64,000 bases of DNA from Escherichia phage KBNP1711. The DNA lies in the sequence record NC_023593.1. One strand, 5' to 3'. Below the pieces are notes generated by a model. It searched no databases. It was not told the origin of the DNA and saw only the letters and a list, made by a program, of their open reading frames with translations. Below are positions 14,096 to 50,415 of the stretch, piece by piece. The position numbers were made by a program, and so were the translations under genes. Each line of letters opens with the position of its first letter. Within the stretch, counting starts at the first letter, position 1.

Positions 14096-14160
14096 GACCT
14101 AAGTCCTGCCTTCTATAATGTATATAGGGGGTAGGACATTTTTATTTATAAGGAGACGTT

Positions 14161-21380: not shown

Positions 21381-22022
21381 TTAAGACCCTTGGAATTCTT
21401 CTTTGTCGAAGTGCTTCTCTACCACATACTCATACAGATCTTTATACTCTGCATAACGACGGTAGAATGTACCGTGTGAGATGCCTAATTCTTTCTGAAT
21501 GGAATCGTGAGGGATACCTAAGAAGAGCATTGAGAACATGCTTGCGAGCTTCTGTGTGTCCATTGTATCACTCAAATCTTGGAAGAAGTAGAAGATACGA
21601 GATTCCATGAAAGGGTCCCCAACTGAATCATGCTTATTAACTGCATATTCCAGAGGACCTTCTGAGTAAATGTCAGGGTTGTTAAACATATCTGCTTCTG
21701 GAATAGCATAGATACGTCGATCACCAACTGTCTGTCGATTAGAACGGATAGACCAGATGATATTCTTCACACGATAGGTCATGTGCTCAATCTCTACCTC
21801 ACCTTCTAGTAGAAGCTCTTCTTGCTTGGAATAGATGAAACGCCAAGCATTAAGCAACACCTCTTGAGCTACATCCTCTGCTTCATGATAGTCACGAATG
21901 TCGTACATAAAGAATTTGTGAACCACTTTCCAGTTCACCTTATAGAACTCATCGAAGGTTGGGAAGTATTTGATTGGAATACCGTGAATACGATACCGAG
22001 TAGGTGTTGTTTTCTTAGCCAC
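21381..22022 (-). CDS. sigma-70 family (ECF-like) sigma factor-like protein
   Basis: [16 protein letters not shown] resembles sigma region 2; C-terminal HTH-like [15 protein letters not shown]. Confidence 0.55.
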
Positions 22023-32708: not shown

Positions 32709-33365
32709 TTAATTCTCCAAAGTTTTCTTCAGAGCTGCCCACGAGATTGGGTAGAGTTTAGCCATCTCTTCATCCAGAGATTGAGCAAACACTCGAACTT
32801 CGTATTGAGCGTGAGAGGAGAGTCGCTGACGACACAACTCAAACCAGCCATACAAAGAACCAGTCCACACCCACTCAGTGATCATTCCCTGAGGAAGAAC
32901 AAATCGAGCTTGCTCTGGTGCAACGAATTCAATCAACTTGTCATATGCTGCTAGAGAGGCTTCATATGCATCGTTAATCAACATTAATGCTTCAGCTCGC
33001 TCTCCATCAATGAGTTGAACCCCTGAACCTGCATGGAGGTCCGAAGGTCTCGCAAAAATCTCTTTAGGGATGAAGACTTCAACTGCTCCATCTTTATACC
33101 TCCGGGACATTTCGTTCCACGAGAATCCAACCTGATGCTTGCCCAGCTGTCTCGCAATTGCGATAGGTGCTTTGCATCGGAAACTGACTTGCGGGTGCCT
33201 GAAAGGCGTGACATGCTTCTCTCTTGCGAGGAAGTTGATGAGACGTTCATCACGTTCATTTAAATCACCTTCACGGGTTACGCCAAAGGAAACTCGAGCT
33301 GCGTTTACTACGCTACGATCACTTCCCATAGCTTCGATTAATGTTGCTTGTAATTGTTCATTCAT
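32709..33365 (-). CDS. thyX: flavin-dependent thymidylate synthase (ThyX)
   Basis: FRHPQVSF...ARQLGKHQVGFSWNEMSRRY resembles the ThyX signature region. Confidence 0.75.
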   Translation of the reverse strand: MNEQLQATLIEAMGSDRSVVNAARVSFGVTREGDLNERDERLINFLAREKHVTPFRHPQVSFRCKAPIAIARQLGKHQVGFSWNEMSRRYKDGAVEVFIPKEIFARPSDLHAGSGVQLIDGERAEALMLINDAYEASLAAYDKLIEFVAPEQARFVLPQGMITEWVWTGSLYGWFELCRQRLSSHAQYEVRVFAQSLDEEMAKLYPISWAALKKTLEN

Positions 33366-34485: not shown

Positions 34486-35070
34486 TTAGTAAGACACGTC
34501 ACCACTGGAGTGGGACATGTTGCTCTTGACGAAGTAACAGAACTTTCCAAGACCTTCATTAATTTCTTGAAGCATACTCTGATCAACTGGATAGGTGCAC
34601 AAGTCTGAATCAAACTCGTCCATCTTCTCAATGATACACATAAGAGTCATGCACATGTCAGAAAGCATACCGTCCATGTCGAGATCAGCGTTACCTTCTC
34701 GGAACCAAGCACAACCAAGATAGCTACTAGCTGTTGCATCCACTTTAATGCAGTGATAACGCATTCGCTCTGCTACCCGATCACCAGTTTCACGAGCATA
34801 ATCTTCTAGTTCATCGAACATACCGTGAACACCTTGGAAACCAGCTCCAGAGACGTTCCAGTGATAGTTCTTTGATTTGATGTGTAGAAGTTCAAGGTTA
34901 GCCTGCACACCACACAGGATGTGCTCTAGGCTGTTACCGCTAATCAATTTATTCATTCCCTCTAGACGAGAGATAGAAGAGTCAGTTGTAGAGAATGGGT
35001 TGCTAGAACCCACTCGTGTCAGTTCAGGTAAGTCGAAGACATTATTATGCATTAGGTTCATCTCCTTCAA
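34486..35070 (-). CDS. Dps-like ferritin-fold protein
   Basis: YHWNVSGAGFQGVHGMFDELEDYARETGDRVAERM matches the Dps helix B/C signature. Confidence 0.5.
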   Translation of the reverse strand: MKEMNLMHNNVFDLPELTRVGSSNPFSTTDSSISRLEGMNKLISGNSLEHILCGVQANLELLHIKSKNYHWNVSGAGFQGVHGMFDELEDYARETGDRVAERMRYHCIKVDATASSYLGCAWFREGNADLDMDGMLSDMCMTLMCIIEKMDEFDSDLCTYPVDQSMLQEINEGLGKFCYFVKSNMSHSSGDVSY

Positions 35071-36083: not shown

Positions 36084-36283
36084 TATCTGTCAACCGATTC
36101 AGGGACAAACTGCATTACACAGACCTGATTACGAGGAAGGTTTATTTCACAAGCGGCTTTTCTATCAGCAACCTTAGATGACGAGTTAGGGCCAATTTGA
36201 GCCATCATTAATCCCATAGCTAACATGCCGAGGATTACACCAATTGCTAAAGATGCTACAGTTTCTTGTTTCATCTTGATCAC
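36083..36283 (-). CDS. small membrane protein
   Basis: Hydrophobic ASLAIGVILGMLAMGLMMA segment. Confidence 0.35.
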   Translation of the reverse strand: MIKMKQETVASLAIGVILGMLAMGLMMAQIGPNSSSKVADRKAACEINLPRNQVCVMQFVPESVDR

Positions 36284-36813
36284 ACCCCTTTAGATGCAAC
36301 TACACCTTCAGAATTATTATAACGACCCTTCACTGCATATGAATGTTCCCCTGCATGAGAGTGCTCAAACATAACCATCTGACCAACACGCATACCAGCA
36401 CGAACTCGTAAGCTATGATGCTTGGTTACGTTATGGAATTCAAATGTCAGCTTACTGCTATTAAACCCTGCGTCTGCCCACCCAGCGTGGAGATGGTTCA
36501 AGCCACAACGAGCCATCGAAGACCGCAGGACAAACAAACTGGAGATGTTATCTGGAAGGTTAAACTCTTCCATCGAGTGAGCTAAGAAGAATTGTCCCGG
36601 AGTAATGATAATACCGTCTTCAGGGATTTTTACTTCTTTCCACTTGAGATTTTCTTTCGCATCAATGTCAACAATCCCATCAGCCTGTTCTTCAATAAGG
36701 ATAGTATCACCAATACGGATATCCACACTAGCAGCGTTAACATACTTATGCTCCGCATCCAGAAAACCGTTATCGATAACGTCGTGTAATTCCATGCTTC
36801 CTAATAAACTCAT
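36280..36813 (-). CDS. dCTP deaminase/dUTPase-family protein
   Basis: ASVDIRIGD and HAGWADAGF motifs. Confidence 0.65.
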   Translation of the reverse strand: MSLLGSMELHDVIDNGFLDAEHKYVNAASVDIRIGDTILIEEQADGIVDIDAKENLKWKEVKIPEDGIIITPGQFFLAHSMEEFNLPDNISSLFVLRSSMARCGLNHLHAGWADAGFNSSKLTFEFHNVTKHHSLRVRAGMRVGQMVMFEHSHAGEHSYAVKGRYNNSEGVVASKGV

Positions 36814-36827
36814 TCTTATTCCTTATG

Positions 36828-38108
36828 TTAATCTGTGATACTGTCGCTTTCGTCAACCCAGACTGGATTATTAATCTGTCCTAAACGACGAGCTGATGTT
36901 TCGTTAATAGAGTTAACCCCTGCTGTGCGAGGGTTTGTGTACCACGGTCGGACTATGCTACCCGACTGAATTGCTTGGTTTGCTTCTACATGCCACCTGT
37001 TTGATACCGTGTTGGCTTCAAAGTTACCACCCGCTCCACCACTGATAGGCACAGCTTGAGCTGGTTGATTTACTCGGTTAGTTCCTGCCCCAAAGGCTGC
37101 TGCAAATTCAGACACACGTGCACTAAATGAAGAACGAGCACGCTGAGGAGGTGATATATCATTTCGTGTATCTACTGCACGAGGCATAGCCCAAGTATCA
37201 TCTGTTGAGATATCAGGGGTAGGCTCTTGCTCTAGAGGTTGAAGATTAGCTGTCCATTGACTATTCAGTATACGATAGAAATCTGCACCATAACCACTTC
37301 GGATAACATCCTCTCTGACACCAAAGAAGCGACTGATATCCCCACCGATTCGGGCTAGTTTGTCATTGTATGCAGGTATGATTATTCCACCCTCTGTCAC
37401 TAAATCAGAGACACGACTTGTTGTAAGTGGTGAAGTGATCCAACAATAATAATCAGTAATGTGACCATCGTATCCGAAGAATGCAATCTCTGCATCAGGC
37501 CATTTCTTGTGGACATATGCCACTTCACGGTTAGAACAAACAGGGATTGCACCTGTTTCAGTCATTGCATAGAAGCCGTCAGAAGAGAACCAAAGTGAAT
37601 CTAGTGCTAAGAATCCACGACACACGCTCGGGAAAGTAGCAGCCAGCGCCCCAAGTGAGGTAGGTTCATTGAACATTAACTGAATCTTTGCACTCTGATA
37701 ATTAATCTCTAGGATATCTACAAAATTCAAAGAAGACCCAGGGGCATATTGATTATTACTTCGTCCAATATCCTGCTCAATGAGAAGAGATCTTGTTTCA
37801 ACACCATGAGCCTCTGCCCACTCTTTGAAATCTTCAAGGAACAAGCGAGCCTTAGCTCGCCACATCGACCGATCAGTTACAGACTGTCTCGGCAATCCAC
37901 CCTCTGTAGTGATGAGAAAGATATCAATGTCGTGAGGTTCACGCGTCTGAAAGATTGCATCCCTAACAGCACCACCTGCAATGATAGGGTACACACCATC
38001 AGGGATTAAACGGTTTGCAATCAACTCGTTAATTAACGTAAGACCAGACACAAGCTGCGGACTATCATCAATCCGACGACGAATTAGTGCATTAGGGATA
38101 TTATACAT
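36828..38108 (-). CDS. nucleotidyltransferase with CCA-adding-enzyme-like head domain
   Basis: IIAGGAVRDAIFQTREPHDIDIFL = GGxVRD...DxD motif of the Pol-beta-type tRNA nucleotidyltransferase/poly(A) polymerase head; long C-terminal region of unknown type. Confidence 0.5.
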   Translation of the reverse strand: MYNIPNALIRRRIDDSPQLVSGLTLINELIANRLIPDGVYPIIAGGAVRDAIFQTREPHDIDIFLITTEGGLPRQSVTDRSMWRAKARLFLEDFKEWAEAHGVETRSLLIEQDIGRSNNQYAPGSSLNFVDILEINYQSAKIQLMFNEPTSLGALAATFPSVCRGFLALDSLWFSSDGFYAMTETGAIPVCSNREVAYVHKKWPDAEIAFFGYDGHITDYYCWITSPLTTSRVSDLVTEGGIIIPAYNDKLARIGGDISRFFGVREDVIRSGYGADFYRILNSQWTANLQPLEQEPTPDISTDDTWAMPRAVDTRNDISPPQRARSSFSARVSEFAAAFGAGTNRVNQPAQAVPISGGAGGNFEANTVSNRWHVEANQAIQSGSIVRPWYTNPRTAGVNSINETSARRLGQINNPVWVDESDSITD

Positions 38109-38657
38109 TTACATTTTCCAATATAAAGATGGGGGGTCATTTGGGTCAAAGTTTGCAATATGGCAAAGATATTTATAAACCTTAACCGTTAAGTTTACGT
38201 CCTGTTCACAATAAGTAAACATGTCCTCTGTAAAGGCATCCCATGCTTCTTCCTGTTCACCGTAATCACCCTTAAGCTCTTCTAAGAACTCACCCCATTG
38301 CTTTAAGCCATGACCTCTTGGGCCATGTCTAGGGTCGCCTTTCGGATACTCAGGACTGTCACCAATACGGTCAGGTTTAAGATACCGACTCAGACATAAA
38401 GTGTCTAGGACGTTGAATTTGTAATCAATCAAATCAGGGTACATCTTCTTCAGAGCACATAAGTCGAAGTCAATAACGTTATGACCTACAACAACATCAG
38501 CCTCTGTAAGTTTCTTGATACCCTCTTCAATCTGGTGAGGGCGAAATCCCCACCGTTCACCAGTTGATATATCGAAGATAAAGATACACCATACGTTTGT
38601 GATATTGTCGTACAGTGCATCACTCTCAATATCAAATGCGTAGACTTTCTTTACCAC
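38109..38657 (-). CDS. 3'-5' exonuclease homologous to the proofreading domain of T7 DNA polymerase, encoded as a separate gene
   Basis: [36 protein letters not shown] align with the Exo I-III motifs of the T7 gp5 N-terminus. Confidence 0.75.
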
Positions 38658-40441
38658 GGGCTTTTCTCTCCATCTTGAGCAAGAAGTGATGCTGCATCCT
38701 CTCCATTTGTCAGCGAGAATGGGTTTTCTTCATCAATTTCATGATCTTCACGCTCAAGCAACCGTCCCGTCTCTCCTACATACTTCGTATAGCACACCCC
38801 TGTTTGTCCATAGTTACGCTCTTTGAGGAGTCGTATAATGGAGAGGTTCTTAGCCAGACCATCTGCTTGTTTGTCACGTTCAAAACCGATGATACATTGA
38901 CACCAACGCATAAGAGAACGAGAGCCAGTAAACTGTACCTCTCGAACCTGACCACCTTCTTCATGAGGTGCACCACCTGCCGGAGCATTGAGGTGAGATA
39001 GTACGAATGCTGTGAAGTTTAATTCTTGACACATACCAGCAAGCTCGGAAGCAATCTTACTGATTTCAGTGTTAATCTCTGAAGGTGTTAAATGAGACAC
39101 CAGAGCGGTAATGTTATCAAGGATGATAAACTTACACTGGTTTTCAACAACCCAGAAACGGATACACTGTTTAATGTCGGCCCATTCATTCTGACCAAAG
39201 TTATCATAGAGGAAGAATTTATCTGCATATCGAAGAGCTTCGTTACGCAATGTATCTTCATCATACTCAACATCAGGTCTATGGAAAGGAATAGATGCTG
39301 ACTTGCCTGCAATGTTCTTAACGGACATTCCGACCTTCTCTTCCAAGAAGAATCCGCCACCATTAAAACCATGCTCAAGGCAAAGCCAAGCAACCAGTTC
39401 ATGTGCAATCAATGTTTTACCAGAGCCTACACCACCACCAATTGCTACCATTTCTCCCCAACGAATACCGTAGGTCATCTCATTAAGAGTTTTCCACGGG
39501 TATGGGATACCCCACTCTGCTTTCTTCAGAGCATCATCTAAGCAATCAAAAACAGTTACAGCACCAGCTGGAGATTCCCGCTTCGCTGAATATTTAAGAA
39601 TGTTAAACAATTCCTGACCACGACCAGAGAGGAGCATATCATTCGCATCTTTAAGCTCTTTCTCAACACCGTTGTACTGGAAAGAACCTTTAGGAATACG
39701 AGCAAACTTCACATGTGGGAACAGAGCACGCCCTTTGGTAAGAGCAATCTCACCAGCATCATCGTTGTCCATACAAAGGACAACCTCTTCAAAACCATTC
39801 AAGAACTCACGGTTGCGAGACAGAACGGAAGAAATCGACCCTGCACCGAACGGTAAAGAGACACACGCTGGTTTAATGTTTGTTGCATTTGTAAAAGCTG
39901 TAAGAACGTGGAAGCCAGACATGCAAGACAAGGGGTCTTCAAAGATGAAGAGCTTCTTATTATACACATCTCCACGTTTAGCCTGTGCCATACCAAACAA
40001 ATCAGCTTCTTTCACACTACCGATGTAATAAAACTTTTTACTATCAAGTAGTTTAACCTCGTAACCGACAATGTTTCCGTCACGTTCACGAGGAAAGAAG
40101 TAACTGTCCGGTGTCTGACCATCAGTTTGACTGAGACCAATACGACATTCAAAACGCTCTGATACAGCTTTAGGGATTAATCGACGAGTGAGTTCTCCTT
40201 GAGGTAACTCCAAGCAATCATCCAAGACCTCTCGAAGTTCTTCAGGGGACAGCTCTTTCTTTTCATTTGGTGTAGGTGTCGTGCCTTTCTCAAAGACTTC
40301 GTAATTACCACACCGGTTACAACTACCCCACTCTTCACCGGATTCCTCATTACGGAAGAGAATCATGTGATTGTGGGTTTTATCACGACCATGAGAGATG
40401 CACTCCTTACAGCCTGTGTCTCCCAAAATGATCTTTGACAT
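38651..40441 (-). CDS. DNA primase/helicase (T7 gp4-like)
   Basis: N-terminal Cys4 zinc motif, primase region, Walker [10 protein letters not shown] and DnaB-like helicase motifs. Confidence 0.8.
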
Positions 40442-40478
40442 GCTCTATCCTCCTTGGATTCTCCTTGAGCAAACTACC

Positions 40479-40688
40479 TTACTTATAAAAACTTCGAATC
40501 ATGTCCCAGATTTCTTCCTGCTGGACCCTAAAGAAAGCTAAACGTGTCGATGTACGTTCGATAAACTCTTCACTATGCTTTTCTCTATCTAGCATACTGA
40601 CAAGCTTTTCGTATTTATTGATCTTCCATCGCATTTTTAAATAGTCTGATTCTAGTGTCCTTAACCTCTGACACTCAATCAAATCCAT
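40479..40688 (-). CDS. hypothetical protein
   Basis: 69-aa ORF. Confidence 0.35.
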   Translation of the reverse strand: MDLIECQRLRTLESDYLKMRWKINKYEKLVSMLDREKHSEEFIERTSTRLAFFRVQQEEIWDMIRSFYK

Positions 40689-41107
40689 CAGTTATCCTCT
40701 GACAGATAAAGAGACCAGTCACCAGATTCAACCAGTTCATCTTGCTCTTCATCAATGTGATAAATCCAAGCAGTGACAGTTTCACCACTATCCAGAACCA
40801 CTTCGATAGGTGTACGCTTGTAGAAAGTGTGTGGGTTGTCATTACCACGATGCCCTTCCAGCATGTCATAAGCGCCCTCAACACCATCCATATCCGTCTT
40901 AAACACTTCAACACGAACAGGTTTACCGTTACTGCTGTGTTCCAGAGAAACACTTGGGAAGTATGAACCACCGTAGCGGTACAGGTTGTAGTTTTCTTTA
41001 GTGAAACCTTCACCAATCGATTCAGCACCTGCACGAGCATTCACTCGGAAGTTAGCCTGACCAGTACGAAGAGAACCATAAGTTGCTACATAAATTACTT
41101 CTGACAT
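40688..41107 (-). CDS. gamma-glutamyl cyclotransferase-like (AIG2/GGCT fold) protein
   Basis: N-terminal VATYGSLRTG motif and length typical of GGCT-like proteins. Confidence 0.45.
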   Translation of the reverse strand: MSEVIYVATYGSLRTGQANFRVNARAGAESIGEGFTKENYNLYRYGGSYFPSVSLEHSSNGKPVRVEVFKTDMDGVEGAYDMLEGHRGNDNPHTFYKRTPIEVVLDSGETVTAWIYHIDEEQDELVESGDWSLYLSEDN

Positions 41108-41178
41108 TTTAAATACCTTTGTTCATTGTTTAGTTAATCCGAACTAGCCTCCTCTTTCGAAGAAGCTAGAGCAGATTG

Positions 41179-41361
41179 CTATGCTGTGAAGTTTTTGATT
41201 ACACCGCAAATAACATCTGTTTCAAACGTACCCACCAGAACATCGTCTCGGTAGAAGTTAATCGCTCTACCGTCTCGGTTAAAGTGATCTGCTTCAATGA
41301 GCATTGACTGTACCTGACCATCTGGAGTGGAGGTTCGAAAGATGACGTTATACTGACTCAT
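41179..41361 (-). CDS. hypothetical protein
   Basis: 60-aa ORF. Confidence 0.3.
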   Translation of the reverse strand: MSQYNVIFRTSTPDGQVQSMLIEADHFNRDGRAINFYRDDVLVGTFETDVICGVIKNFTA

Positions 41362-41600
41362 AAAGAAGTTACTCCCTTATCTTCTTGGGCGATAGAGATG
41401 ATACGACTCACACACTGCATTGAGTACTCATCTCCACGCTTTAGGAACGTTACGATAGCAGAGAATTGATTACCAATCATCCGCTCATTTGTGATACCGA
41501 ACTCTTTGCAGAGTTCTTTCAGTTTGCTACGAGAACCAATAATCAGAGGCTCTTTTTCTTCAGTCATTCCGCGACTAATCAAATCTTCAATAGACAACAT
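41358..41600 (-). CDS. hypothetical protein
   Basis: 80-aa ORF. Confidence 0.35.
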   Translation of the reverse strand: MLSIEDLISRGMTEEKEPLIIGSRSKLKELCKEFGITNERMIGNQFSAIVTFLKRGDEYSMQCVSRIISIAQEDKGVTSL

Positions 41601-41623
41601 AATTCCATTCCTTGGGGGTTTAA

Positions 41624-42841
41624 TTAAAAGTTTACTACTTCACCATTAACGGTAGTTACTGATGCAAGACGACGAACACGACCAATCTGTTCACGACTAA
41701 TTGGAGTGTTCCAACCAGAGCGATAGAAGTTGCGACCGCAGAAGAATACAACAACATTAGAAGCAATCCGTCCGTAGTTACGATCAGGGTGGTTGATATT
41801 CGCTAGGTAATATCCACGGGTCAGGTTTGCATTTTCATTAATGGGACGAGCATTTGGTGCAGTTGTTTCAGCTTGCATCACTTCTTGAACTTCTTCAACA
41901 ACAGGCTCAACTGTAGGAGTATCACCAGCTAAAGCAAAGTTCTCATCAGCAGCCTCTTCTGCATCATCTTCCAGCTCCACAGTTTCCTGAATAACTGGCA
42001 GAGGGTATGCTACACGATACTCAGGGTTTTGACCACGGAGAGACTCAACATACTGCAAGAAGTTGTGCTGGTAAGTTTCCAGAGTCGTACCAGTCAGGCC
42101 CGGAGCGGTGTTAACTTCTAACACCCATGCTTCCTCGCCTTTACTGATAATGTCAACAGCACCAAAGTTAAGACCGAGTGCTTGTACTGCTTTGTGCGCT
42201 TGAATCAGAACCTGATCATTTGGTGAATCATTAAAAGCATTTGAATAAACCCAACCAGTGTGATGATTACGAACATCTTCACGATAGTCAGGGTTATCAC
42301 GATACCCATTACGACGAATCTTCTTCTGTACGTAAGTAATAACACCTTCAAAGACATGAACACGCCATTCACGACGTGGGCCAGTGATTGCTTTCGTGTA
42401 CAGAGGAGCCTCTGCAATACCTTCACGAGTAAGACGAACAGTGATACCTTCACCAGAGTGACCGTTCAGTACACCACGTTCATAAACAATACTATTTCGG
42501 TTCCAGTTCTGTGCTTCTTCACGATTAGTGGTATATTCAACAGTCTTGACTTCCGCAAGACGCATAGTATTGAAAGCTGCAACCTTGTTCGCCGCACGAT
42601 TCAACGCTGCTACGTTGTTCAGGACCGTTGCACCTTCGAAGAAGGATTCTTGATAACGACGGTTTCCGTAGTTGATGATCACATCACCAGAACGAGCACG
42701 GAATCGGCTGGTTCCATCAGACAGAAGAGCCATTGCGTTAGCATTGATTCGGTTGTCACGGAGATGTTGATTCAAGCTGGACACCAGAGCATTAACAGAA
42801 TCAGAAGGGCCATAAGGGAGAACACGGATACGAGTAGTCAT
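41624..42841 (-). CDS. ATP-grasp family ligase
   Basis: EWRVHVF and LGLNFGAVDIISKGEEAWVLEVNTAPGL match the ATP-grasp C-terminal nucleotide-binding motifs. Confidence 0.55.
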   Translation of the reverse strand: MTTRIRVLPYGPSDSVNALVSSLNQHLRDNRINANAMALLSDGTSRFRARSGDVIINYGNRRYQESFFEGATVLNNVAALNRAANKVAAFNTMRLAEVKTVEYTTNREEAQNWNRNSIVYERGVLNGHSGEGITVRLTREGIAEAPLYTKAITGPRREWRVHVFEGVITYVQKKIRRNGYRDNPDYREDVRNHHTGWVYSNAFNDSPNDQVLIQAHKAVQALGLNFGAVDIISKGEEAWVLEVNTAPGLTGTTLETYQHNFLQYVESLRGQNPEYRVAYPLPVIQETVELEDDAEEAADENFALAGDTPTVEPVVEEVQEVMQAETTAPNARPINENANLTRGYYLANINHPDRNYGRIASNVVVFFCGRNFYRSGWNTPISREQIGRVRRLASVTTVNGEVVNF

Positions 42842-42843
42842 TT

Positions 42844-43077
42844 TTAGATACCTTTAAGTTTAAGAATTTCGTTGCGAGTACGTTGGATACGTTCTTCAAG
42901 AGTGTGATAATCAAAGATGCAGATCTCTTCTGCTTCATCAGAAGGTGCATCCATTAAACCCATAGCAATCGGATACACTTTTCGCTGTTCCGTTGTCATG
43001 TTCTGTAGCCGGAGTCGTTGATACTCCAGCAGGGTAATTTTCGGCTTGTTAGTTTCCTTGCTTGACATGAGGCTCAA
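42844..43077 (-). CDS. hypothetical protein
   Basis: 77-aa ORF. Confidence 0.3.
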   Translation of the reverse strand: MSLMSSKETNKPKITLLEYQRLRLQNMTTEQRKVYPIAMGLMDAPSDEAEEICIFDYHTLEERIQRTRNEILKLKGI

Positions 43078-43282
43078 CCTTGATACCTTTCAGTTTCACA
43101 TAGTCAGCCAGCACGTTGTTAATAACTGTTGGGAAAGGAATCTCAACAGGTGCATTAACTAACCCACCAATACCCTCTTGCATCCACTTCTGGATTGCAC
43201 GAAGGTTATCACATCCTGTGCTTGTCATTGGAATACGGCGAGTGGTTACAACGTTATCCAACATCATCTTACGAATTTCCAT
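43049..43282 (-). CDS. hypothetical protein
   Basis: 77-aa ORF. Confidence 0.3.
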   Translation of the reverse strand: MEIRKMMLDNVVTTRRIPMTSTGCDNLRAIQKWMQEGIGGLVNAPVEIPFPTVINNVLADYVKLKGIKVEPHVKQGN

Positions 43283-43292
43283 AATACACCTC

Positions 43293-45311
43293 TTAATTAT
43301 GACCTTTACAGTGCACTGAATCGCACACCACTTGATTGGTATTGTTTAGTGTGCAGAGTTCTGCATCACGCCACGGAATCTTTTTAAAACAGACTGCACA
43401 AAACCCCAAAGTAGACCAGAGGGCTTTTGTGAAGGTTGCTGAACGGTTTCCATCGGAAGAGGCAACTGTTCTGGTAATTGAGACTTTTGACTCACGAAAG
43501 GTTTCCGCTACTGGAGCGGATTCCTCCTTTGGGGTAGTCACTGCAATAGCATAAATACCACCCCAACGCTTCTCAATGTAAGCACCGAATACATCTTCCA
43601 GAGTGATTTCACTCTTACGCTTGGTTGAGGATTCCATGACAACCATGTTGTCCAGAATCTTTTGATCGACACGAAGAGCTACTTCAGGACGTCGAGCACT
43701 TGTTGTATCAACACACTTAGTCCAAACATAACCCTCTTTCAGGGTGACTTGAGTTGCTTGCTTCTTTGCTTTATTAGCACAGATTTTACAAACATCGTCA
43801 CCACGAAGTTTACTGAACTCTTCATCAAATTCAAAGTCAGACTTCACTTCACCGCACACCGAACAAACACCGATAGGAATCTCATCCTCTTCAACGTCTT
43901 CTACTTGCTTCTGGATAGAATCAAAACAAGCTTTATGCCAATATGCTTGGTATGCGAAGATTGCACTTGGGGCTTCTTTCCAGTCGATGTGCTTATCACA
44001 GCCACCACAATCACCATGGGAATGGGCTTCCCAGAACTTACGAGTGATAGTCACCCCATTCTTGCTGACAAAACTATCCTCTGCATCAAAAGGGATATCA
44101 TCATCGAAATCAGCTGTAGTGCTTTCCGGCTCCTTTTTCGACAAGTCAAAGAAGTGACCAGAGATCAACACCAAACGAATCATGCTATTAACTTCAGAAA
44201 TACAGCCAACCGTACCACGGTAAACCATATGCTTATTCTTAAGAGCAGCTTCGTAATCAGTTTGCAGGATGTTATGAACATCACCCTCAATATACTCTTG
44301 AGCTTTGTCATCATAAATATAACCAACCATCTTACCGCGATCGGTATCTTTATAACAAACAAACTCGTGAGGAATAATATCAACCTGCATATCACGACGG
44401 ATATCAACACCTTTGTCAGATGCGATCTTGTTTTGTTTCAAGATTGCTTCACGACGACGTACATCACCTGCGGTTACGCCGGGCTTTCTTTGCTCGTCGC
44501 TGTTCCCGTTTACGTAACTTTTTATCCCGCTTGAGTGATTGTTGCTGTAGCTGTTCGAGTAATAACTTCCCCAACGCGTTGCTACCGTAAAAACCGGGAG
44601 TTCATGTACGACCTCCTCTACCAAAGTCATCTTGTTGTCAGAAACATCAAAGATGTACTCTGTACCGACTTTACACTCAAAGTGCTCATCGATTCGATTC
44701 TTGTGGCTCTTAGAACGCTGAAGAATCCACATCAACATAGCTTCTTCTGAAGCACCAAACCATGAAGTTCCCAGACGGGCCAGATGGAATGGACGCTCAT
44801 CGTTGCGAATGATGTGAAGACGGTTATCACTTGCATCATGCCAGATCAGAGTGAATGCACCATCCAACTTCTGAATAGTCTCTGCTGCACCAATCTTGTT
44901 AATAGAGTGGCAGATGTTCTCACTATCAACCTCAAAAACCTTACTGTCAGGCAGAAGGTCTTGATCAACTAAGGTTCCGTTATGAACCAGAGTGATGTTT
45001 CCGTGAGAGAATGGGTGAGCGTTACGTGAGTTAATAGCACCTTTCGTAGCATGTCGGCTATGACCAACAATCCATGAAGGAGGCACTGTGTAATTAGTAA
45101 GGCCAGTTGTCAGCTCGGTGTACTCTTTCTGTAACATGAAAGCATAGGAAGGTAGTGCTTCTTTGTAAGAGAACACAGATCTTTCGCTTTTACGCTGACC
45201 GAAAATACCAGTTGAGTGTTGACCACGAAATACACCAGCATAAAGAAGCTGGTTGTAAACATCTAAGTCATAACTTGAGAGGCTTCCACCTGCTAATACG
45301 ATACCACAAAT
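43293..45311 (-). CDS. class-II (Ntn) glutamine amidotransferase domain protein with long Cys-rich C-terminal extension
   Basis: Hand translation upstream of track start gives (ATT)-CGIVLAGG...VFRGQHSTGI...HNGTL; SD AGGTGG 8 nt before ATT 45311; track ORF begins at GTG 45176. Confidence 0.6.
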   Translation of the reverse strand: MCGIVLAGGSLSSYDLDVYNQLLYAGVFRGQHSTGIFGQRKSERSVFSYKEALPSYAFMLQKEYTELTTGLTNYTVPPSWIVGHSRHATKGAINSRNAHPFSHGNITLVHNGTLVDQDLLPDSKVFEVDSENICHSINKIGAAETIQKLDGAFTLIWHDASDNRLHIIRNDERPFHLARLGTSWFGASEEAMLMWILQRSKSHKNRIDEHFECKVGTEYIFDVSDNKMTLVEEVVHELPVFTVATRWGSYYSNSYSNNHSSGIKSYVNGNSDEQRKPGVTAGDVRRREAILKQNKIASDKGVDIRRDMQVDIIPHEFVCYKDTDRGKMVGYIYDDKAQEYIEGDVHNILQTDYEAALKNKHMVYRGTVGCISEVNSMIRLVLISGHFFDLSKKEPESTTADFDDDIPFDAEDSFVSKNGVTITRKFWEAHSHGDCGGCDKHIDWKEAPSAIFAYQAYWHKACFDSIQKQVEDVEEDEIPIGVCSVCGEVKSDFEFDEEFSKLRGDDVCKICANKAKKQATQVTLKEGYVWTKCVDTTSARRPEVALRVDQKILDNMVVMESSTKRKSEITLEDVFGAYIEKRWGGIYAIAVTTPKEESAPVAETFRESKVSITRTVASSDGNRSATFTKALWSTLGFCAVCFKKIPWRDAELCTLNNTNQVVCDSVHCKGHN

Positions 45312-45385
45312 TTTCTAATCCACCTGAAGGGTAAACCCTTTCATCTAATTAACCTTTAATTGTGCCCCTTTCGAGGCACCCATTG

Positions 45386-46486
45386 TTACAGCAGTCGTTC
45401 TAACTGAATTTCCAAGTGGTCTGGAATATACTCAGTGACGTTGTTATCAGAGACGCCAGATTCACGCATCATGTTGAGCATGTTACGAATCTGCCCTTCT
45501 GTTGCTTCACGAGTTTCACTAATCTCTGTTTCATACAGAGCCATGATCTCGTTATGAACATCTTGAGCATTACCACGGACATATCCGAGGAAGCCATAGA
45601 AGTCAGACATATCACGAAGGGATACAACTACCGACCCACTACTATCAAGAGTTTGTAAACGAATACGCCCAACCTGACGCACAGATCGGTTACGACAGAA
45701 CAGGATATCACGAGCCAGACGATAACCGCTATCAAGATCTTCGTGTCTTGGGGTGTAGTCCAGAGGTAGGTGCGGGAGCATAGGGTCAAAACGAACCCTG
45801 TTGAGCATCTCAACAAACTCTTCATTGTCCATCTCTGCATTTTCAACTGCTAATTTCTTAAGAACCAAGAAGCGGTTTACCAGATTTAACAGCTGACCTT
45901 TCTTCCACTTAGGCTCTGAGATACGGAACTCAACAGAACCGAACTGAGCCAGAGGGAGTAGGTTGAGTGATGTGTACTTATCCCAACGGTCGACGATATG
46001 TCGGAAGAAGTTCTCACCTTCGTAGTTAAATGCTTCAGAAGCGTTCATTACTTGAGCCTGAACCACTGCAAAAGCAGGACAGAAATTACTACGGTAACGG
46101 TGATAACCAGAGCACTTAAACATCAATGCTTCATAGAAAGTCCACCCAAGGATAACTTTCTTAACGATATTGCTATCAGCATCTCGCATATCCATATGAA
46201 CGTGAGTGGAACATCGCCAAGTCCCTTCTGCTTCGGACTCCATCACTGCCTCACTCAGATTGTTGATAGCGTCAAACAGTTCTACACCATTGTAAGGGCG
46301 AGAACAGACCATTTCACATCCGTTGCGAAGCGAGCCATCCTCTGTACATTCCCACATATCTGCTTCGATATGATCGTCACCTTCAAGCTCCAGCTCAATA
46401 CCAATACCGCATTGGAATGCGATACTCGGATGTGCTTCACTCAGACGATTACTACGGTATCCAAAAGCTTGCGCTACAGTTGTCAT
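45386..46486 (-). CDS. glutamine synthetase-like amidoligase (carboxylate-amine ligase) candidate
   Basis: IGIELELEG near N-terminus and CSTHVHMD resemble the Glu-x-Glu and His-x-His metal motifs of GCS2/amidoligase enzymes. Confidence 0.45.
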   Translation of the reverse strand: MTTVAQAFGYRSNRLSEAHPSIAFQCGIGIELELEGDDHIEADMWECTEDGSLRNGCEMVCSRPYNGVELFDAINNLSEAVMESEAEGTWRCSTHVHMDMRDADSNIVKKVILGWTFYEALMFKCSGYHRYRSNFCPAFAVVQAQVMNASEAFNYEGENFFRHIVDRWDKYTSLNLLPLAQFGSVEFRISEPKWKKGQLLNLVNRFLVLKKLAVENAEMDNEEFVEMLNRVRFDPMLPHLPLDYTPRHEDLDSGYRLARDILFCRNRSVRQVGRIRLQTLDSSGSVVVSLRDMSDFYGFLGYVRGNAQDVHNEIMALYETEISETREATEGQIRNMLNMMRESGVSDNNVTEYIPDHLEIQLERLL

Positions 46487-47097
46487 AACGACTCCACTAA
46501 CTCCACAGTGTATTGGTTAAAATCACTTTCAATATGCTTGAACTTGTCAAGCAGTTGTACGGTCTGACGACCACGGCTGTCATATCCAGCACTAAGAAGC
46601 ACACGACCAACATGTGCACCTTTATAATAAACAAGACCATCAGAAGGATTGATGAAGATAAAGCGAGTCAACAAGCCTTCAAAGGATGGGTTAAACAGGT
46701 TATAAACCATCTCACCAGAGATGTTACGACCTAGAGAAGTTACGCCACGGAGTTTGTTACCCATCAACCCCTTAGCTCGCTGACGAACTGGATTGATGTG
46801 AGTCCAACTTACCATGTTACGTCCGTGTTGAAGATAACCAACATCAGGGGATTCCAGAATCAGGTTAGGGTTGAAAACCCCAATCTGAACTGTTGTACGG
46901 TTAAACCCTGAGTCTGTTTTAAACCAACGCTCTGCTTCGAACATCAAAGCCATCTCTGCTTCATGAGAGAAGTCATCACGAGAGAACTCACCTTGTTGGA
47001 ATACGTTCATAACAAACAGTGGGATGTTTAAGTTCCCACGTCTTTCAGCAATCCATGTCCCACAATAGTAATGAGAGAAGTCAGTTACTAAGCTCAC
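46483..47097 (-). CDS. hypothetical protein
   Basis: 204-aa ORF inside the ligase cluster; Cys at position 12. Confidence 0.4.
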   Translation of the reverse strand: MSLVTDFSHYYCGTWIAERRGNLNIPLFVMNVFQQGEFSRDDFSHEAEMALMFEAERWFKTDSGFNRTTVQIGVFNPNLILESPDVGYLQHGRNMVSWTHINPVRQRAKGLMGNKLRGVTSLGRNISGEMVYNLFNPSFEGLLTRFIFINPSDGLVYYKGAHVGRVLLSAGYDSRGRQTVQLLDKFKHIESDFNQYTVELVESL

Positions 47098-47106
47098 GAT
47101 AACCCC

Positions 47107-47913
47107 TTACGCTACCTGTAAACGTTTCAAGAACACATCTGCTTCACGAACATCGTTGGTGTTGATGATCTGGTGCAGCTTTTCAATCGGAAGGCGAGAG
47201 TGGAGGCTCATCAAGAACTCCATGTCGCTATTTTGTACAACCTTGTCAACTTGATCGTACACGAATTGACGATCTTCTTTCTTGCCAATCCAGAAGTTCG
47301 ACAGAGAGCGATACTCAATGCCATAAGGTTTGTAACGGATTGCGGATGCTTTACCGTACAGCTCTTTACGTCGAGTATCACCATCCATCAGAACAGCAGG
47401 CAATGACAGGAAGTAATCACACAGAACGCCCAGCATCATCTGAACCTTCTTATTCACATCCAGAGAGCCAGTGACACCAATGTGCACATGACCACCTGCT
47501 GTACGCAAGCCCTTGTTCTCTGAAGTTGGAGAAGCATTCTTTTGACCAGTGAATGCGTTGAAGTCTGGAGTACAACCAAACACGAAAGCGGACGGATGGA
47601 ATGATTCCAATTCCTCTTTAGAGAAGATATGAGAACTTACACCCAGAGCCGCTTCCATGTCCTGTTTCTTCAGAACTTCGTTGGTAAGATCAATACCGCG
47701 CTGAACGTTGTCATTAAACGCTTCAAAACCTTGTTGTGGGTTGATATCAAACTCAGCCAGCACGTTGTCTTCTTGGAGACGTACATCCTTAGCCAGATCG
47801 ATTTTATTTTCTTTAGAACAACCCAGCTTGCCAGCAACAGAGGTGATGATGCCAGAAGAAGTACGAACAAACATCTCTGGGTCCGTTCCAATTAAAAAGA
47901 TGCGCTTAGTCAT
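47107..47913 (-). CDS. glutamine synthetase/GCS2-like amidoligase candidate
   Basis: Internal Met start MTKRIFLIGTDPEMF and RTAGGHVHIG motifs. Confidence 0.45.
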   Translation of the reverse strand: MTKRIFLIGTDPEMFVRTSSGIITSVAGKLGCSKENKIDLAKDVRLQEDNVLAEFDINPQQGFEAFNDNVQRGIDLTNEVLKKQDMEAALGVSSHIFSKEELESFHPSAFVFGCTPDFNAFTGQKNASPTSENKGLRTAGGHVHIGVTGSLDVNKKVQMMLGVLCDYFLSLPAVLMDGDTRRKELYGKASAIRYKPYGIEYRSLSNFWIGKKEDRQFVYDQVDKVVQNSDMEFLMSLHSRLPIEKLHQIINTNDVREADVFLKRLQVA

Positions 47914-48835
47914 TATAGTATTCCACCAATTCTTTAAAGAGGGATATGATTGTTTCTTTGTTGCTCTCCATATTAGAGCCGCAACGACTTTCAATACGTT
48001 CTAAGAAACCATTTACATTGATGTTAGAAATCTTTTCATCAAGAGATGAACGTTTCCAACCAGTGCTCATAGACCAAACTCTCAAAAAGGTACTCATTGA
48101 AGAGTACATCTCTGCGTTTTGGTTTCGACGACGAGCAATACGACGAAGAGCTGCACGGTCATGGTTTCGGATATACCCTGATGTGTTATCACCTTCTCCG
48201 ACTTTGTTTTGCAACCAAACGTCGGTTGAAAACTCACCTGTATTGCAAATAATCGGAAGAAATGCAAATGCTGGTAAATCATGCGGTAAATAGATAGATG
48301 TTGATTCGTCAGTGGAGTCATTAACTCTATCAAAGTTAAGCTCCCCAAAGAAGTCCTTACTTACCCCAGCAAGAGCTAGAGCTAATCCAACACGACGACG
48401 GAATAGCCATTCTTCTCTATCATCAACTCCCTCTGAAAGAAAATCCATAGATTCATACTCGCAATCGAGATAGCTACGGAAAGTCATTAGTCCTGTAAAA
48501 ACTTTATCTGCTGCGTGTTCACGAAGATCAACCTCTACACTATTAGCAGAAGTTATTGTGAACATATCTTTGTACATAGAACAGGAGTTCAGTACATCAG
48601 CAGTATCCACCAAATGAGACTCAGTCTCATCCATGTTGCAGTGGGGCCAGTAGTTAATCTTACCCATGTGCGCTGTGAAGTTATCCAAGCTGGTTCGAGT
48701 ACTCAGGCCGTTAATGTCACGAGTGCTAAAGTTGTGCATAGAGTTGTGGATACCGAAACAAACTCGGCTCGCAAAACTCTGCTCACCCAACATATCACTA
48801 ACTTCTACAGGAGCTAATGTTGTGGAAATTGCCAT
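47906..48835 (-). CDS. hypothetical protein
   Basis: 309-aa ORF. Confidence 0.4.
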   Translation of the reverse strand: MAISTTLAPVEVSDMLGEQSFASRVCFGIHNSMHNFSTRDINGLSTRTSLDNFTAHMGKINYWPHCNMDETESHLVDTADVLNSCSMYKDMFTITSANSVEVDLREHAADKVFTGLMTFRSYLDCEYESMDFLSEGVDDREEWLFRRRVGLALALAGVSKDFFGELNFDRVNDSTDESTSIYLPHDLPAFAFLPIICNTGEFSTDVWLQNKVGEGDNTSGYIRNHDRAALRRIARRRNQNAEMYSSMSTFLRVWSMSTGWKRSSLDEKISNINVNGFLERIESRCGSNMESNKETIISLFKELVEYYND

Positions 48836-48847
48836 TGTCTTTAACCT

Positions 48848-50041
48848 TTAATTTCCTAAGAAAAGTTTCGTGAGAATTGAATCCCACTCCGTACTAGGCA
48901 GCACATCAAAGCTGCTATTATTTGACAAATTCGACTGTTGAAAGTGGCGAATCAGTGTGTAAGTGTTAACACGGTCATTACCAAATCGAGTATACAACAA
49001 CTCGTTTCGAGTCTTGTCTGATAGGGAAATAGCTTTGGCAAAAGCTACAATCAGCATAGGCTCTTTGAGGGCACGATCTTGAAGGGCTTCTGGTTGAATA
49101 ATAGGTAAGAACATCGAGTTGTTTACATACAGCTCATGCTCTTCGTGTCCGGGAACGTCATACCAAATACTCTGGTAGTCTTCATCACGAAAATGTCCTT
49201 CACCAGCCATATATGACGGTTGACGCCACGCGGTCTGGCGAGGTTCTGCCATATTAGCTCCGATACCCACTGTGTACAGTGTTACAGGGAACAGGCAGTT
49301 GTCATATTCGTTACCAGTAAAGGCAACTCGTACTTCACCAAACAGGTTCTCTTTTGCGTTAATCAATCGAGAATAGGCAAGAGCTTGTAACGGAGACCAA
49401 TTATCCATGTAGAGCTTATCAAGGAAAGTCCACACGTTTGCTTGTTCGTCTTCTTGATAGAACAGACGATTCACCATAAGGTAGAACAGGCAACGATCAG
49501 CAGGAACTGGTTCAGATACATCTTCTGTTACTACACCCATAAAACCTTTTTCATGCCAAACAAGACATGAAGGACGATCTTTATCCATGAAAGCTTCAAG
49601 CGCTTCCATAACTGACTTGACAGTTACATCAGGACGTTCACGATATTCAGCCCAAAGCTCAACTGCATTCTTAGGCTTTTCATCCCCTACATCAGCGTGA
49701 TAGAAAGCATATTGGAAGGAGATGATGTTGTTGCTCCCATCCTTTCCACGCATAGGGATGTGGGTTCCAGAGTTCCAGATAATACGAATATCTTCCATTG
49801 ACATATTTCTGCTCAGGACTTCATCTCTGCCTGAGCTTTGCATCAAGCTATAGCTGCTATCCCAAACATGGACATACTGCGTCCAGCCTTCATTGGCTTC
49901 GTAGGTAATGGGGTCGTAATAGTCGTCATCTTCATCACAATCATCACCACCATGGTAGTTGTCGTGCTGAAGAAATCCATAGCAAGGAGGCCAGACTGTT
50001 AATACGTTGTCGTGCTTATCCTGCAATGTTACTGGAAACAT
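48848..50041 (-). CDS. hypothetical protein
   Basis: 397-aa ORF with acidic Cys-containing N-terminus. Confidence 0.45.
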   Translation of the reverse strand: MFPVTLQDKHDNVLTVWPPCYGFLQHDNYHGGDDCDEDDDYYDPITYEANEGWTQYVHVWDSSYSLMQSSGRDEVLSRNMSMEDIRIIWNSGTHIPMRGKDGSNNIISFQYAFYHADVGDEKPKNAVELWAEYRERPDVTVKSVMEALEAFMDKDRPSCLVWHEKGFMGVVTEDVSEPVPADRCLFYLMVNRLFYQEDEQANVWTFLDKLYMDNWSPLQALAYSRLINAKENLFGEVRVAFTGNEYDNCLFPVTLYTVGIGANMAEPRQTAWRQPSYMAGEGHFRDEDYQSIWYDVPGHEEHELYVNNSMFLPIIQPEALQDRALKEPMLIVAFAKAISLSDKTRNELLYTRFGNDRVNTYTLIRHFQQSNLSNNSSFDVLPSTEWDSILTKLFLGN

Positions 50042-50052
50042 TTTGAAACCTC

Positions 50053-50415
50053 TTATTGTTGTTTGATCAACTCAACGGACTTACGGATGTAAAGAATATC
50101 ACGGAAGTTACGATAGTTGTTCATGAATTGATGCTTCTGGAACTCAGCTTCAAGCAGAGATTCTTTGGCACTTTCATAACTCTTACGGGCAAGATACACA
50201 ACCCGCTCTGGTAATACGTTTGCACGACGGATGATATACTTGTGAGCTTTCATATTGCTCTGCTCACGAGCTATCTTACTTTTTGCTACCGTAATGCCAT
50301 TTGCAAGCCAAACAAGCTCTTGCTCAAGCTCTTCGTTGGACATTCCACCGAGGTTTGATGCAACCTTGTTCAGAGTTTCAATGTTAACGTTGCCCTTGAT
50401 GGGACGTGTATTCAT
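50053..50415 (-). CDS. hypothetical protein
   Basis: 120-aa ORF. Confidence 0.4.
   Translation of the reverse strand: MNTRPIKGNVNIETLNKVASNLGGMSNEELEQELVWLANGITVAKSKIAREQSNMKAHKYIIRRANVLPERVVYLARKSYESAKESLLEAEFQKHQFMNNYRNFRDILYIRKSVELIKQQ

Follow-up and report, generated by a model that had tools for sequence, protein, structure and literature searches.

The phiEco32-type amidoligase cassette of Escherichia phage KBNP1711: intact enzymes, conserved gene order and a possible gamma-glutamyl pathway

Introduction

A block of eight co-oriented genes in Escherichia phage KBNP1711 raises the question of what a virulent phage makes with three ligases and a glutamine amidotransferase that have no obvious role in replication or virion assembly. 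The block occupies positions 40688 to 50041 of the DNA analysed here, 64,000 nucleotides of sequence record NC_023593.1 (this whole stretch is hereafter the window). It is a member of the phiEco32-type amidoligase cassette, which has been known since 2009: the same five enzyme families stand in the same gene order beside the primase-helicase gene, and nothing essential differs in the window. The block itself is an ordinary member of this known cassette. Among the answers weighed below, we give the most weight, at somewhat less than an even chance, to a gamma-glutamyl “protect, modify, deprotect” pathway in the cytoplasm, with an amine-bearing small molecule or short peptide as its substrate.

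Later papers credit the first definition of the cassette, from genome comparisons, to Iyer, Abhiman, Burroughs and Aravind (2009), and cite Hardies et al. (2013) as having also discussed it. In these later papers the set is called the “peptidoglycan modification cassette” or “module”, is described as gamma-glutamyl cyclotransferase, ATP-grasp, glutamine amidotransferase, amidoligase and COOH-NH2 ligase, and is attributed to phages phiEco32, 7-11, PA11, tf, LUZ24, PaP3, RIO-1 and CW02. The roles proposed there, remodelling of the wall against superinfection or preparation of the wall for lysis, are worded as explicit hypotheses. In the searchable full-text literature, in which the 2009 and 2013 papers are represented by the papers that cite them, we found only such hypotheses and no experiment on the cassette product. 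An earlier note on this DNA, made from the sequence alone, had stated that the association was known from comparative genomics and that no function was established. Both points stand, and the first was understated, as a named Pfam family (PF14395, “phage phiEco32-like COOH.NH2 ligase type 2”), a literature name, and RefSeq and BASEL annotations exist. Two evolved isolates of a LUZ24-like phage (Bruynoghevirus) carry missense changes, at different positions, in the amidoligase and amidotransferase genes, which suggests a host-dependent contribution of the cassette to fitness.

Results

Folds and catalytic residues of the five enzymes

All eight open reading frames (ORFs) of the block were recovered from the ORF listing on the minus strand, with the boundaries given in the earlier note (Table 1). 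Five of them encode the enzymes that had been predicted, based on matches in Pfam, PHROG, NCBIfam and the PDB: a GGACT/AIG2-like gamma-glutamyl(amine) cyclotransferase, an ATP-grasp ligase, an N-terminal nucleophile (Ntn)-type class II glutamine amidotransferase, and two glutamine-synthetase-like carboxylate-amine ligases, of the Amidoligase_2 and COOH-NH2 ligase type 2 families. The GGACT, GATase_6, Amidoligase_2 (25.6 bits, cut-off 22) and PF14395 (31.1 bits, cut-off 25) matches all lie above the curated Pfam cut-offs. The ATP-grasp ligase belongs to PHROG 2599 (1.4e-177), with PHROG 20552 matching residues 322-405. It falls below the Pfam cut-offs for Dala_Dala_lig_C (4.5e-4) and RimK (2e-3), reaches 7e-8 to 3e-6 against the NCBIfam MptN, RimK and Ddl models, and matches solved RimK-type alpha-L-glutamate ligases in the PDB. 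Its scores of 28.2 bits against rimK_fam (cut-off 143.4) and 22.4 bits against PRK10446 (cut-off 331) indicate that the likeness to the RimK family is at the superfamily level only.

The catalytic residues of these enzymes are intact. In alignments with counterparts from other lineages (8 sequences for each glutamine-synthetase-like ligase, 7 for the ATP-grasp ligase and 4 for the cyclotransferase), the following sets are invariant: 1) E31, E33, E35, E58, H95, H97, E186 and R188 in Amidoligase_2; 2) D11, E13, E54, H142, H144, E200 and R202 in the COOH-NH2 ligase, across 8 lineages; 3) the HSGxG glycine loop, E158, R160 and the metal-ligand triad D230/E242/N244 in the ATP-grasp ligase; and 4) Y10, G11, L13 and L83-E84-G85 in the cyclotransferase, comprising its YGxL motif and LEG glutamate. 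The amidotransferase, read directly from its sequence, has Cys1 and the SRHATKG, HNG and DSE motifs that supply the expected arginine, asparagine-glycine and aspartate positions. These folds and residues support the proposal that the block holds the enzymes needed to form amide bonds at the expense of ATP, glutamine supplying the nitrogen.

Distribution and gene order

The region from 40400 to 50100 is 96.5% identical, over 100% of its length, to Escherichia phage EP335, 96.6% identical to the BASEL phage KarlSchell_Bas89 (hereafter Bas89), and roughly 74% identical to about 90 further E. coli and Shigella podophages. EP335, of the genus Nieuwekanaalvirus, and Bas89 are both classified in the Gordonclarkvirinae, the subfamily that also includes phiEco32. 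The window therefore comes from a phiEco32-like virulent podophage of the C3 morphotype.

Beyond these close relatives, tblastn located the COOH-NH2 ligase in at least 315 phage records, among whose hosts are Pseudomonas (121), Escherichia (92), Vibrio, Aeromonas, Proteus, Salmonella, Cronobacter, Klebsiella and Rhizobium. One gene order is shared by Bas89, ECBP2, Privateer, Cronobacter phage A24, Aeromonas phage LAh_8 and the LUZ24-like phages Rembedalsseter and UFV-P2: two proteins of 270-400 amino acids (aa) without assigned function, the COOH-NH2 ligase, a further such protein of about 200 aa and Amidoligase_2, followed by the amidotransferase, small proteins and the ATP-grasp ligase. The cassette is found in Gordonclarkvirinae, Grimontviridae, Lahexavirus, LUZ24-like phages and Zobellviridae, in the last with permuted order. 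This comparison of neighborhoods, which the earlier note had proposed, shows the same genes and order recurring in several phage groups, so that a chance juxtaposition is excluded.

The ligase gene looks confined to phages. A profile scan that covered 185,579 species of bacteria and archaea, with a single genome per species, gave 48 loci, nearly all on contigs of metagenome bins; these contigs reach at most 86 kb, and about 20 of them, at 40-57 kb, have a length in keeping with phage genomes. We read these loci as phage sequence sorted into bins, and their near-exclusive origin in bins together with their phage-like sizes argues that the ligase was not borrowed from host metabolism. The bins with ligase homologs include Saccharibacteria and other lineages of the candidate phyla radiation, and one Woesearchaeota bin. 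The scaffolds of 0.5-1.1 kb that came from an isolate assembly of Herbiconiux daphne share 48-67% identity with the coliphage gene and look like contaminants.

Two gamma-glutamyl enzymes in one slot

Twenty of the metagenomic loci extend at least 6 kb on both sides of the ligase and are treated here as full loci. The amidotransferase, Amidoligase_2 and the ATP-grasp ligase are each present in 19 of the 20; 13 have the protein of about 200 aa, and 15 have a primase-helicase gene no more than 10 kb downstream. The position of the cyclotransferase is more variable in its occupant: GGACT occurs in 8 of the 20 full loci and Peptidase_C26 in 14, with both in 5 and at least one of the two in 17. Pfam supports these assignments for Klyazma (Peptidase_C26, 6.7e-17) and a Vibrio phage (4.5e-17), and for six further C26 and four further GGACT proteins, 12 sampled proteins in all. 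Peptidase_C26 is found only in sister cassettes, and the window carries GGACT.

Since two unrelated folds fill one slot, their shared chemistry, the cleavage of gamma-glutamyl amides, is the likely reason for the exchange. The substrates of characterised GGACT and C26 enzymes are small gamma-glutamyl amides in free form, such as gamma-Glu-epsilon-Lys, gamma-Glu-GABA and folyl-polyglutamate. Pathways that make and later remove such a bond include butirosin synthesis, in which BtrJ adds and BtrG removes a protective gamma-glutamyl group, and putrescine utilisation, in which PuuA and PuuD pair a ligase with a gamma-glutamyl remover. We consider the GGACT/C26 interchange the strongest internal evidence that a gamma-glutamyl-amine bond may be made by the cassette and later removed.

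Start and modules of the amidotransferase

The amidotransferase gene begins with an ATT codon (45311-45309) directly followed by the cysteine codon, with an in-frame TAG two codons upstream. The earlier note had correctly set the start at 45311, though the ORF listing gave only a shorter ORF with a GTG start; the Bas89 record annotates the same start, and the records of EP335, ECBP2 and Klyazma place it downstream, which would cost the enzyme its catalytic cysteine. ATT or ATC directly precedes Cys1 in 7 of 17 genes caught by a pattern search, unrelated lineages included, and such starts recur in Klyazma and two metagenome-bin contigs. One metagenome-bin contig has no in-frame stop in the 12 codons shown upstream, which makes its ATT/ATC start uncertain. 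A 9-codon upstream ORF (MKGFTLQVD, 45344-45315) ends 3 nucleotides (nt) before the ATT of the window gene. The 22 nt before this codon are identical in ECBP2, EP335 and Bas89, and the amidotransferase protein is only 70% identical to that of ECBP2. A GNRA hairpin further upstream (45362-45379) has 7 bp and a GAAA loop with no U-run after it, and the fold z-score of the region is only -1.96.

The best NCBIfam matches of the amidotransferase are the N-terminal domains of GlmS and PurF. After the Ntn domain (residues 1-225) come a linker of low complexity, a small and conserved domain in the middle (about 300-400) and three cysteine clusters that resemble zinc ribbons, as the earlier description of a fused cysteine-rich region had implied: a module repeated at residues 413-465 and 619-665, and a CxxC..CxxC arrangement at 483-511. 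The terminal four-cysteine ribbon is present in every lineage examined. Beyond residue 225 we recognised no synthase domain, only adaptor-type modules. The simplest reading is that the amidotransferase docks on a ligase and feeds ammonia to an acyl-phosphate, which would give glutamine-dependent amidation of a carboxylate.

Accessory proteins

The three remaining proteins of the block, of 397, 309 and 204 aa, had been left without assignment in the earlier note, and they remain so: searches with single sequences, and also with a profile, gave no Pfam, NCBIfam or PDB sequence match, and each falls in a PHROG restricted to phages. For the 397-aa protein, a confident structure model had no counterpart among solved structures in Foldseek, and an exhaustive HMMER profile search of its family gathered only 24 proteins with no bridge to known families. 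When the same model was compared with models of viral proteins (E 1e-5 to 3e-3), a 309-aa viral protein was the second-best match; others were both upstream proteins of Cronobacter phage GAP52 and the counterparts in Proteus phage 3H10_20 and Aeromonas phages LAh_8 and LAh_6. An N-terminal hairpin followed by C[FY]G is common to all of these proteins and to the 309-aa ORF of the window, for which only five homologs were found. Alignment of the two families with hhalign brings their ADR/ADK, MxxR, WxQ and (H/Y)xR(D/N)xD motifs into register at a low overall probability of 0.2%. It is therefore mainly because of the shared C[FY]G motif and the Foldseek matches, and not of the hhalign probability, that the two 5' genes are predicted to be paralogs of one family, here called CFG, without a solved relative. 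They are 45-49% identical to their ECBP2 counterparts, against 70-80% for the cassette enzymes.

The 204-aa protein is modelled as two small SH3/Tudor-like beta-barrels joined by an invariant loop; this most conserved segment is predicted to be flexible and carries an R-x3-K-G motif. Its stop codon overlaps the Amidoligase_2 start by 4 nt (ATGA), and the stop of the 309-aa protein overlaps the COOH-NH2 ligase start by 8 nt. At the other extreme of conservation from the CFG paralogs stands the small DUF7195 protein, the most conserved of the cassette (91% identical to ECBP2), which is also conserved in Privateer, A24 and Rembedalsseter. Relative to the literature consulted, the CFG paralogy and its unmatched fold, the double barrel of the 204-aa protein, the rank of DUF7195 as most conserved protein, the ATT start with its upstream ORF, and the GGACT/C26 interchange are new here.

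Layout of the block and neighboring genes

The cassette accounts for about 12% of a 76-kb genome. It is a compact operon that lies upstream of, and co-oriented with, the primase-helicase, split DNA polymerase, nucleotidyltransferase and dCTP deaminase genes, and its own genes overlap or sit 2-12 nt apart, a spacing that fits a stoichiometric complex. In a scan of the cassette no internal promoter or terminator was convincing, and promoter-like sites were rarer than in shuffled sequence.

Table 1. Features of the cassette and of other window regions mentioned in the text.
Feature	Coordinates	Strand	Remarks
CFG-family protein A, 397 aa	48848..50041	-	First cassette gene; enzyme-like conservation
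CFG-family protein B, 309 aa	47906..48835	-	PHROG 13102; predicted divergent paralog of the 397-aa protein
COOH-NH2 ligase type 2 (GCS2/glutamine-synthetase-like)	47107..47913	-	PF14395 1.8e-7; PHROG 3815 2.4e-114
204-aa accessory protein	46483..47097	-	Two small beta-barrels (model)
Amidoligase_2, second glutamine-synthetase-like carboxylate-amine ligase	45386..46486	-	PF12224 1.3e-5; PHROG 7469 1.3e-146
Gap before the amidotransferase gene	45309..45385, including the ATT	-	74 nt; only sizeable intergenic gap of the cassette
Ntn-type class II glutamine amidotransferase	43293..45311	-	GATase_6 4.4e-14 (Pfam)
DUF7195 small protein, 77 aa (range 72-77 aa)	43049..43282	-	PF23825 1.1e-17; just downstream of the amidotransferase
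77-aa ORF	42844..43077	-	Conserved only within Gordonclarkvirinae
RimK/Ddl-like ATP-grasp ligase	41624..42841	-	Residues 1-270 ATP-grasp, then acidic linker and 80-aa C-terminal domain
Two small ORFs, 80 aa and 60 aa	41179..41600	-	Between the ATP-grasp and GGACT genes; lineage-restricted
GGACT/AIG2-like gamma-glutamyl(amine) cyclotransferase	40688..41107	-	PF06094 3e-17; PHROG 2520 1.8e-43
69-aa ORF	40479..40688	-	Last gene before primase-helicase; cassette membership uncertain
DNA primase-helicase	38651..40441	-	Conserved downstream neighbor, context only; 94% identical to ECBP2
426-aa “nucleotidyltransferase”	36828..38108	-	
dCTP deaminase	36280..36813	-	
Ferritin-like domain protein	34486..35070	-	5.2e-7
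ThyX	32709..33365	-	Thy1 1.4e-43
Weak Sigma70_r2 match	21381..22022	-	2.6e-3

Bas89 carries HNH homing-endonuclease genes at three places in or beside its cassette (5520-6011, 8839-9348 and 13979-14449 of the Bas89 locus), one of them within an intron that splits the COOH-NH2 ligase gene, whose coding sequence is annotated as joined; the window has none of the three insertions. The 426-aa “nucleotidyltransferase” has no Pfam match and, at 30% identity to its ECBP2 counterpart, is the fastest-evolving gene of the replication block. The ferritin-like gene, which overlaps an EP335 gene annotated as a putative DNA-binding protein, and the gene with the Sigma70_r2 match both lie in the early/middle region. 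The latter may be a counterpart of the sigma factor encoded by phiEco32.

Discussion

A possible gamma-glutamyl pathway

In the pathway that we favour, one of the three ATP-dependent ligases (ATP-grasp or either glutamine-synthetase-like enzyme) would make a gamma-glutamyl amide on an amine of the substrate. The remaining ligases would activate carboxylates as acyl-phosphates and then add an amino acid; alternatively, they would amidate the carboxylate with ammonia that the Ntn amidotransferase frees from glutamine. Having no fused synthase, the amidotransferase would dock on its ligase via beta-barrel and zinc-ribbon modules. The GGACT cyclotransferase would finally strip the gamma-glutamyl group as 5-oxoproline, a step that the Peptidase_C26 gamma-glutamyl hydrolase would perform in sister cassettes. 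The 204-aa double-barrel protein and DUF7195 may be non-catalytic scaffold or carrier subunits, and the two fast-evolving CFG paralogs may be new enzymes or host-facing specificity factors. A small-molecule acceptor is favoured because of the specificities of characterised GGACT and C26 enzymes; the linkage, the order of steps and the purpose of the pathway are our inferences.

Several points weigh against such a pathway. The ATP-grasp ligase scores about equally against RimK-type and D-Ala-D-Ala ligase models and so does not point to one substrate class. The class II amidotransferase domain could be a gamma-glutamyl amidohydrolase like EgtC, whose model is a weak NCBIfam match (2.8e-3), and not an ammonia donor. 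Three of the 20 full loci, Privateer and A24 among them, have neither GGACT nor C26 within the fetched region. The zinc ribbons, the SH3/Tudor-like barrels and the extra C-terminal domain of the ATP-grasp ligase may fit a protein or nucleic-acid target at least as well as a small molecule, and there is precedent in RimK and PafA for a use of these folds on protein substrates. With such adaptor-type domains and fast-evolving paralogs, a macromolecular target is still plausible.

A bolder form of the gamma-glutamyl pathway is that phages invented a route to a so far undescribed small molecule, for example an amidated or aminoacylated derivative of a diamino acid or polyamine, which is gamma-glutamyl-protected during its synthesis, and that the CFG family with its invariant Cys/Asp/Arg/His set is a new enzyme fold. 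We hold this joint proposal to be unlikely as it stands. If true, the phage-made molecule would alter host physiology or neutralise a host response, such as a polyamine-based response to infection, and would explain both the retention of the cassette in hundreds of virulent podophages and its changes during host adaptation.

Peptidoglycan remodelling and protein tagging

Remodelling of peptidoglycan, the role that later papers trace to Iyer et al. (2009) and Hardies et al. (2013), would have the ligases rebuild unusual stem-peptide linkages on cytoplasmic precursors while the amidotransferase and the GGCT-type enzyme edit or degrade them; the altered wall of the infected cell would then block superinfection or be readied for lysis. 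The even scores of the ATP-grasp ligase against RimK and D-Ala-D-Ala ligase models are compatible with this role, and in the Grimontviridae phages Privateer (5773-6195) and Cronobacter A24 (5326-5751, both in locus coordinates) the cassette has an endolysin gene about 1-1.5 kb upstream of it, about 3 kb from the COOH-NH2 ligase; in the window, by contrast, about 17 kb separates the lysis genes from the cassette. MurT/GatD and AsnB/LtsA are precedents for a glutamine-dependent amidation of carboxylates in the stem peptide. Characterised GGACT and C26 enzymes, however, act on L-gamma-glutamyl amides, whereas the stem peptide carries D-iso-glutamate. The cassette proteins match no Mur-ligase family in Pfam, NCBIfam or PHROGs, and the translations, inspected by eye and not with a predictor, show no signal peptide or membrane segment, so that only soluble precursors could be substrates. 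Peptidoglycan precursors are a possible acceptor for which our analysis gives no specific support, and we judge this role improbable, well behind an even chance.

We rate protein tagging level with peptidoglycan remodelling. In this case a protein of the phage or the host would receive glutamate or a different amino acid from the ligases, on a carboxylate or a lysine, in the manner of RimK with S6 or PafA with Pup; the target would be the 204-aa protein, at its invariant loop, or else a host factor that the CFG paralogs recruit, and GGACT or C26 would recycle gamma-glutamyl fragments. Among the best matches of the ATP-grasp ligase are glutamate ligases of the RimK family that act on proteins and cofactors, zinc-ribbon modules accompany the amidotransferase in every lineage examined, and the 204-aa protein, whose ATGA overlap suggests translational coupling to Amidoligase_2, offers SH3/Tudor-like barrels with a conserved and flexible loop bearing R-x3-K-G in the model. 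The low confidence of that loop may, however, only reflect the 22-sequence alignment. The CFG paralogs evolve much faster than the enzymes, a pattern common in host-interacting proteins. Against a protein target, we know of no GGACT or C26 enzyme that acts on intact proteins, and none of the ligases matches the Pup_ligase family in Pfam. A pupylation-like tag in particular was rejected: the ligases match Amidoligase_2 and COOH-NH2_lig rather than Pup_ligase, and no small ORF in 40479-50415 ends in GG[QE]. A 120-aa ORF among the small ORFs of that interval ends in KQQ.

DNA modification and salvage

Gordonclarkvirinae are reported to show marked resistance to restriction-modification, and the cassette might explain it by adding an amino-acid-derived group to a base. 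EcoRV, EcoKI and EcoP1 sites occur in the window at expected frequency, so that site avoidance does not account for the resistance; some viral contigs carry amidoligase and amidotransferase genes together with genes for thymidine hypermodification; and the cassette stands beside replication genes, with zinc ribbons that could bind DNA. The DNA of relatives speaks otherwise. Rembedalsseter carries the cassette, yet Nanopore sequencing of its native DNA went normally and revealed nicks only, and the DNA of the LUZ24-like phage U17 is sensitive to 11 of 16 restriction enzymes. A literature search for restriction digests of Kuravirus DNA yielded no usable data. In the window, ThyX and dCTP deaminase provide a normal dTMP supply. 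ThyX is the only thymidylate synthase found, and no source of 5-hydroxymethyl-dU (5-hmdU), whether a ThyA-type hydroxymethylase or TET/JBP, was detected. Neither Pfam searches, which covered the eight cassette proteins and ten other window ORFs but not every small ORF, nor the EP335 annotation gave a hydroxymethylase, 5-hmdU kinase, aGPT-pyrophosphorylase or DpdA, and the PHROG matches include no hallmark thymidine-hypermodification gene. We therefore rejected DNA hypermodification as the main reading and give it a very low probability; given the unmodified-looking DNA of relatives, ThyX and the lack of hallmark genes, the resistance of the subfamily needs another explanation. Of the options listed in the earlier note, a peptide-like metabolite and a tag on a protein or cell-wall substrate are still live, and a nucleotide substrate is now disfavoured on these grounds.

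Restriction-site avoidance was considered separately and rejected as uninformative on the cassette, since the counts are mixed: over the whole window CCWGG has 6 sites against about 73 expected, and BamHI, PstI, KpnI and SalI have 0-2 each against about 10.6 expected, whereas EcoRV, EcoKI and EcoP1 sites are not depleted. As a side observation, a phage with ThyX and dCTP deaminase can make dTMP, which is at odds with the dU-containing DNA that has been suggested in print.

A role in general salvage of nitrogen or amino acids, in which the cassette as an auxiliary metabolic set would recycle host glutamine, glutamate or peptides for phage synthesis, is as far from likely as DNA modification: one paper places the genes among “host material recycling genes” and PHROG labels two of them auxiliary metabolic genes, but the ligase families are absent from cellular chromosomes in the 185,579-species scan, so that host metabolism is not duplicated, and three distinct ligases with accessories in fixed order argue for a specific product and not for bulk salvage.

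Significance

Carriers of the cassette include phage groups used in therapy (Kuravirus and relatives, and the LUZ24-like Bruynoghevirus) and many marine phages. In the BASEL collection, Bas86-89 have the cassette and can be grown on a derivative of E. coli K-12, as is probably true of further Gordonclarkvirinae there, which makes the cassette experimentally approachable. Identification of the product would show what five Pfam families or domains and several PHROGs do, would probably reveal new gamma-glutamyl chemistry and a new protein fold, and would test the textbook-style, unproven claim that phages remodel peptidoglycan from inside.

Comparison with known systems

Thymidine hypermodification clusters (Lee et al. 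2018, 2021) resemble the cassette in being multi-enzyme, in lying near replication genes and, in some cases, in having amidoligase or amidotransferase genes. They differ in their defining genes (dUMP hydroxymethylase or TET/JBP, 5-hmdU kinase and aGPT-pyrophosphorylase), which were not found here, where the phage has ThyX. The two glutamine-synthetase-like ligases belong to the same carboxylate-amine ligase superfamily as PafA of the PafA/Dop system, which works with a Pup-like tag of GG[QE] end that the cassette lacks, and the ATP-grasp ligase is nearest to the RimK-family alpha-L-glutamate ligases, far below the family cut-offs.

Glutathione metabolism (GshA, GshB, GGT and GGCT) offers a fold-for-fold parallel: a GCS-type ligase, an ATP-grasp enzyme, an Ntn-hydrolase fold and a gamma-glutamyl cyclotransferase. 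The Ntn enzyme of the cassette, however, is a class II amidotransferase and not GGT, its cyclotransferase is of the GGACT/AIG2 type, and no cassette protein matches GshA or GshB at family level in Pfam or NCBIfam.

The closest parallels to the pathway proposed here are butirosin synthesis, with BtrJ (ATP-grasp) and BtrG (GGCT-like), and putrescine utilisation, with PuuA and PuuD (C26). There is no sequence-level orthology with either; the cassette has three ligases and an Ntn amidotransferase, and no acyl-carrier-protein-like carrier was recognised in it. PuuA is a GlnA-type enzyme, whereas the phage ligases belong to the GCS2 and Amidoligase_2 families; in Pfam the window cassette has no Gln-synt_C match, and it has no C26. 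The likeness to the Puu/Pau pathways would thus be one of logic and not of membership: in each of the characterised systems a gamma-glutamyl ligase is paired with an enzyme that removes the group again, which is the division of labour that we propose for the cassette.

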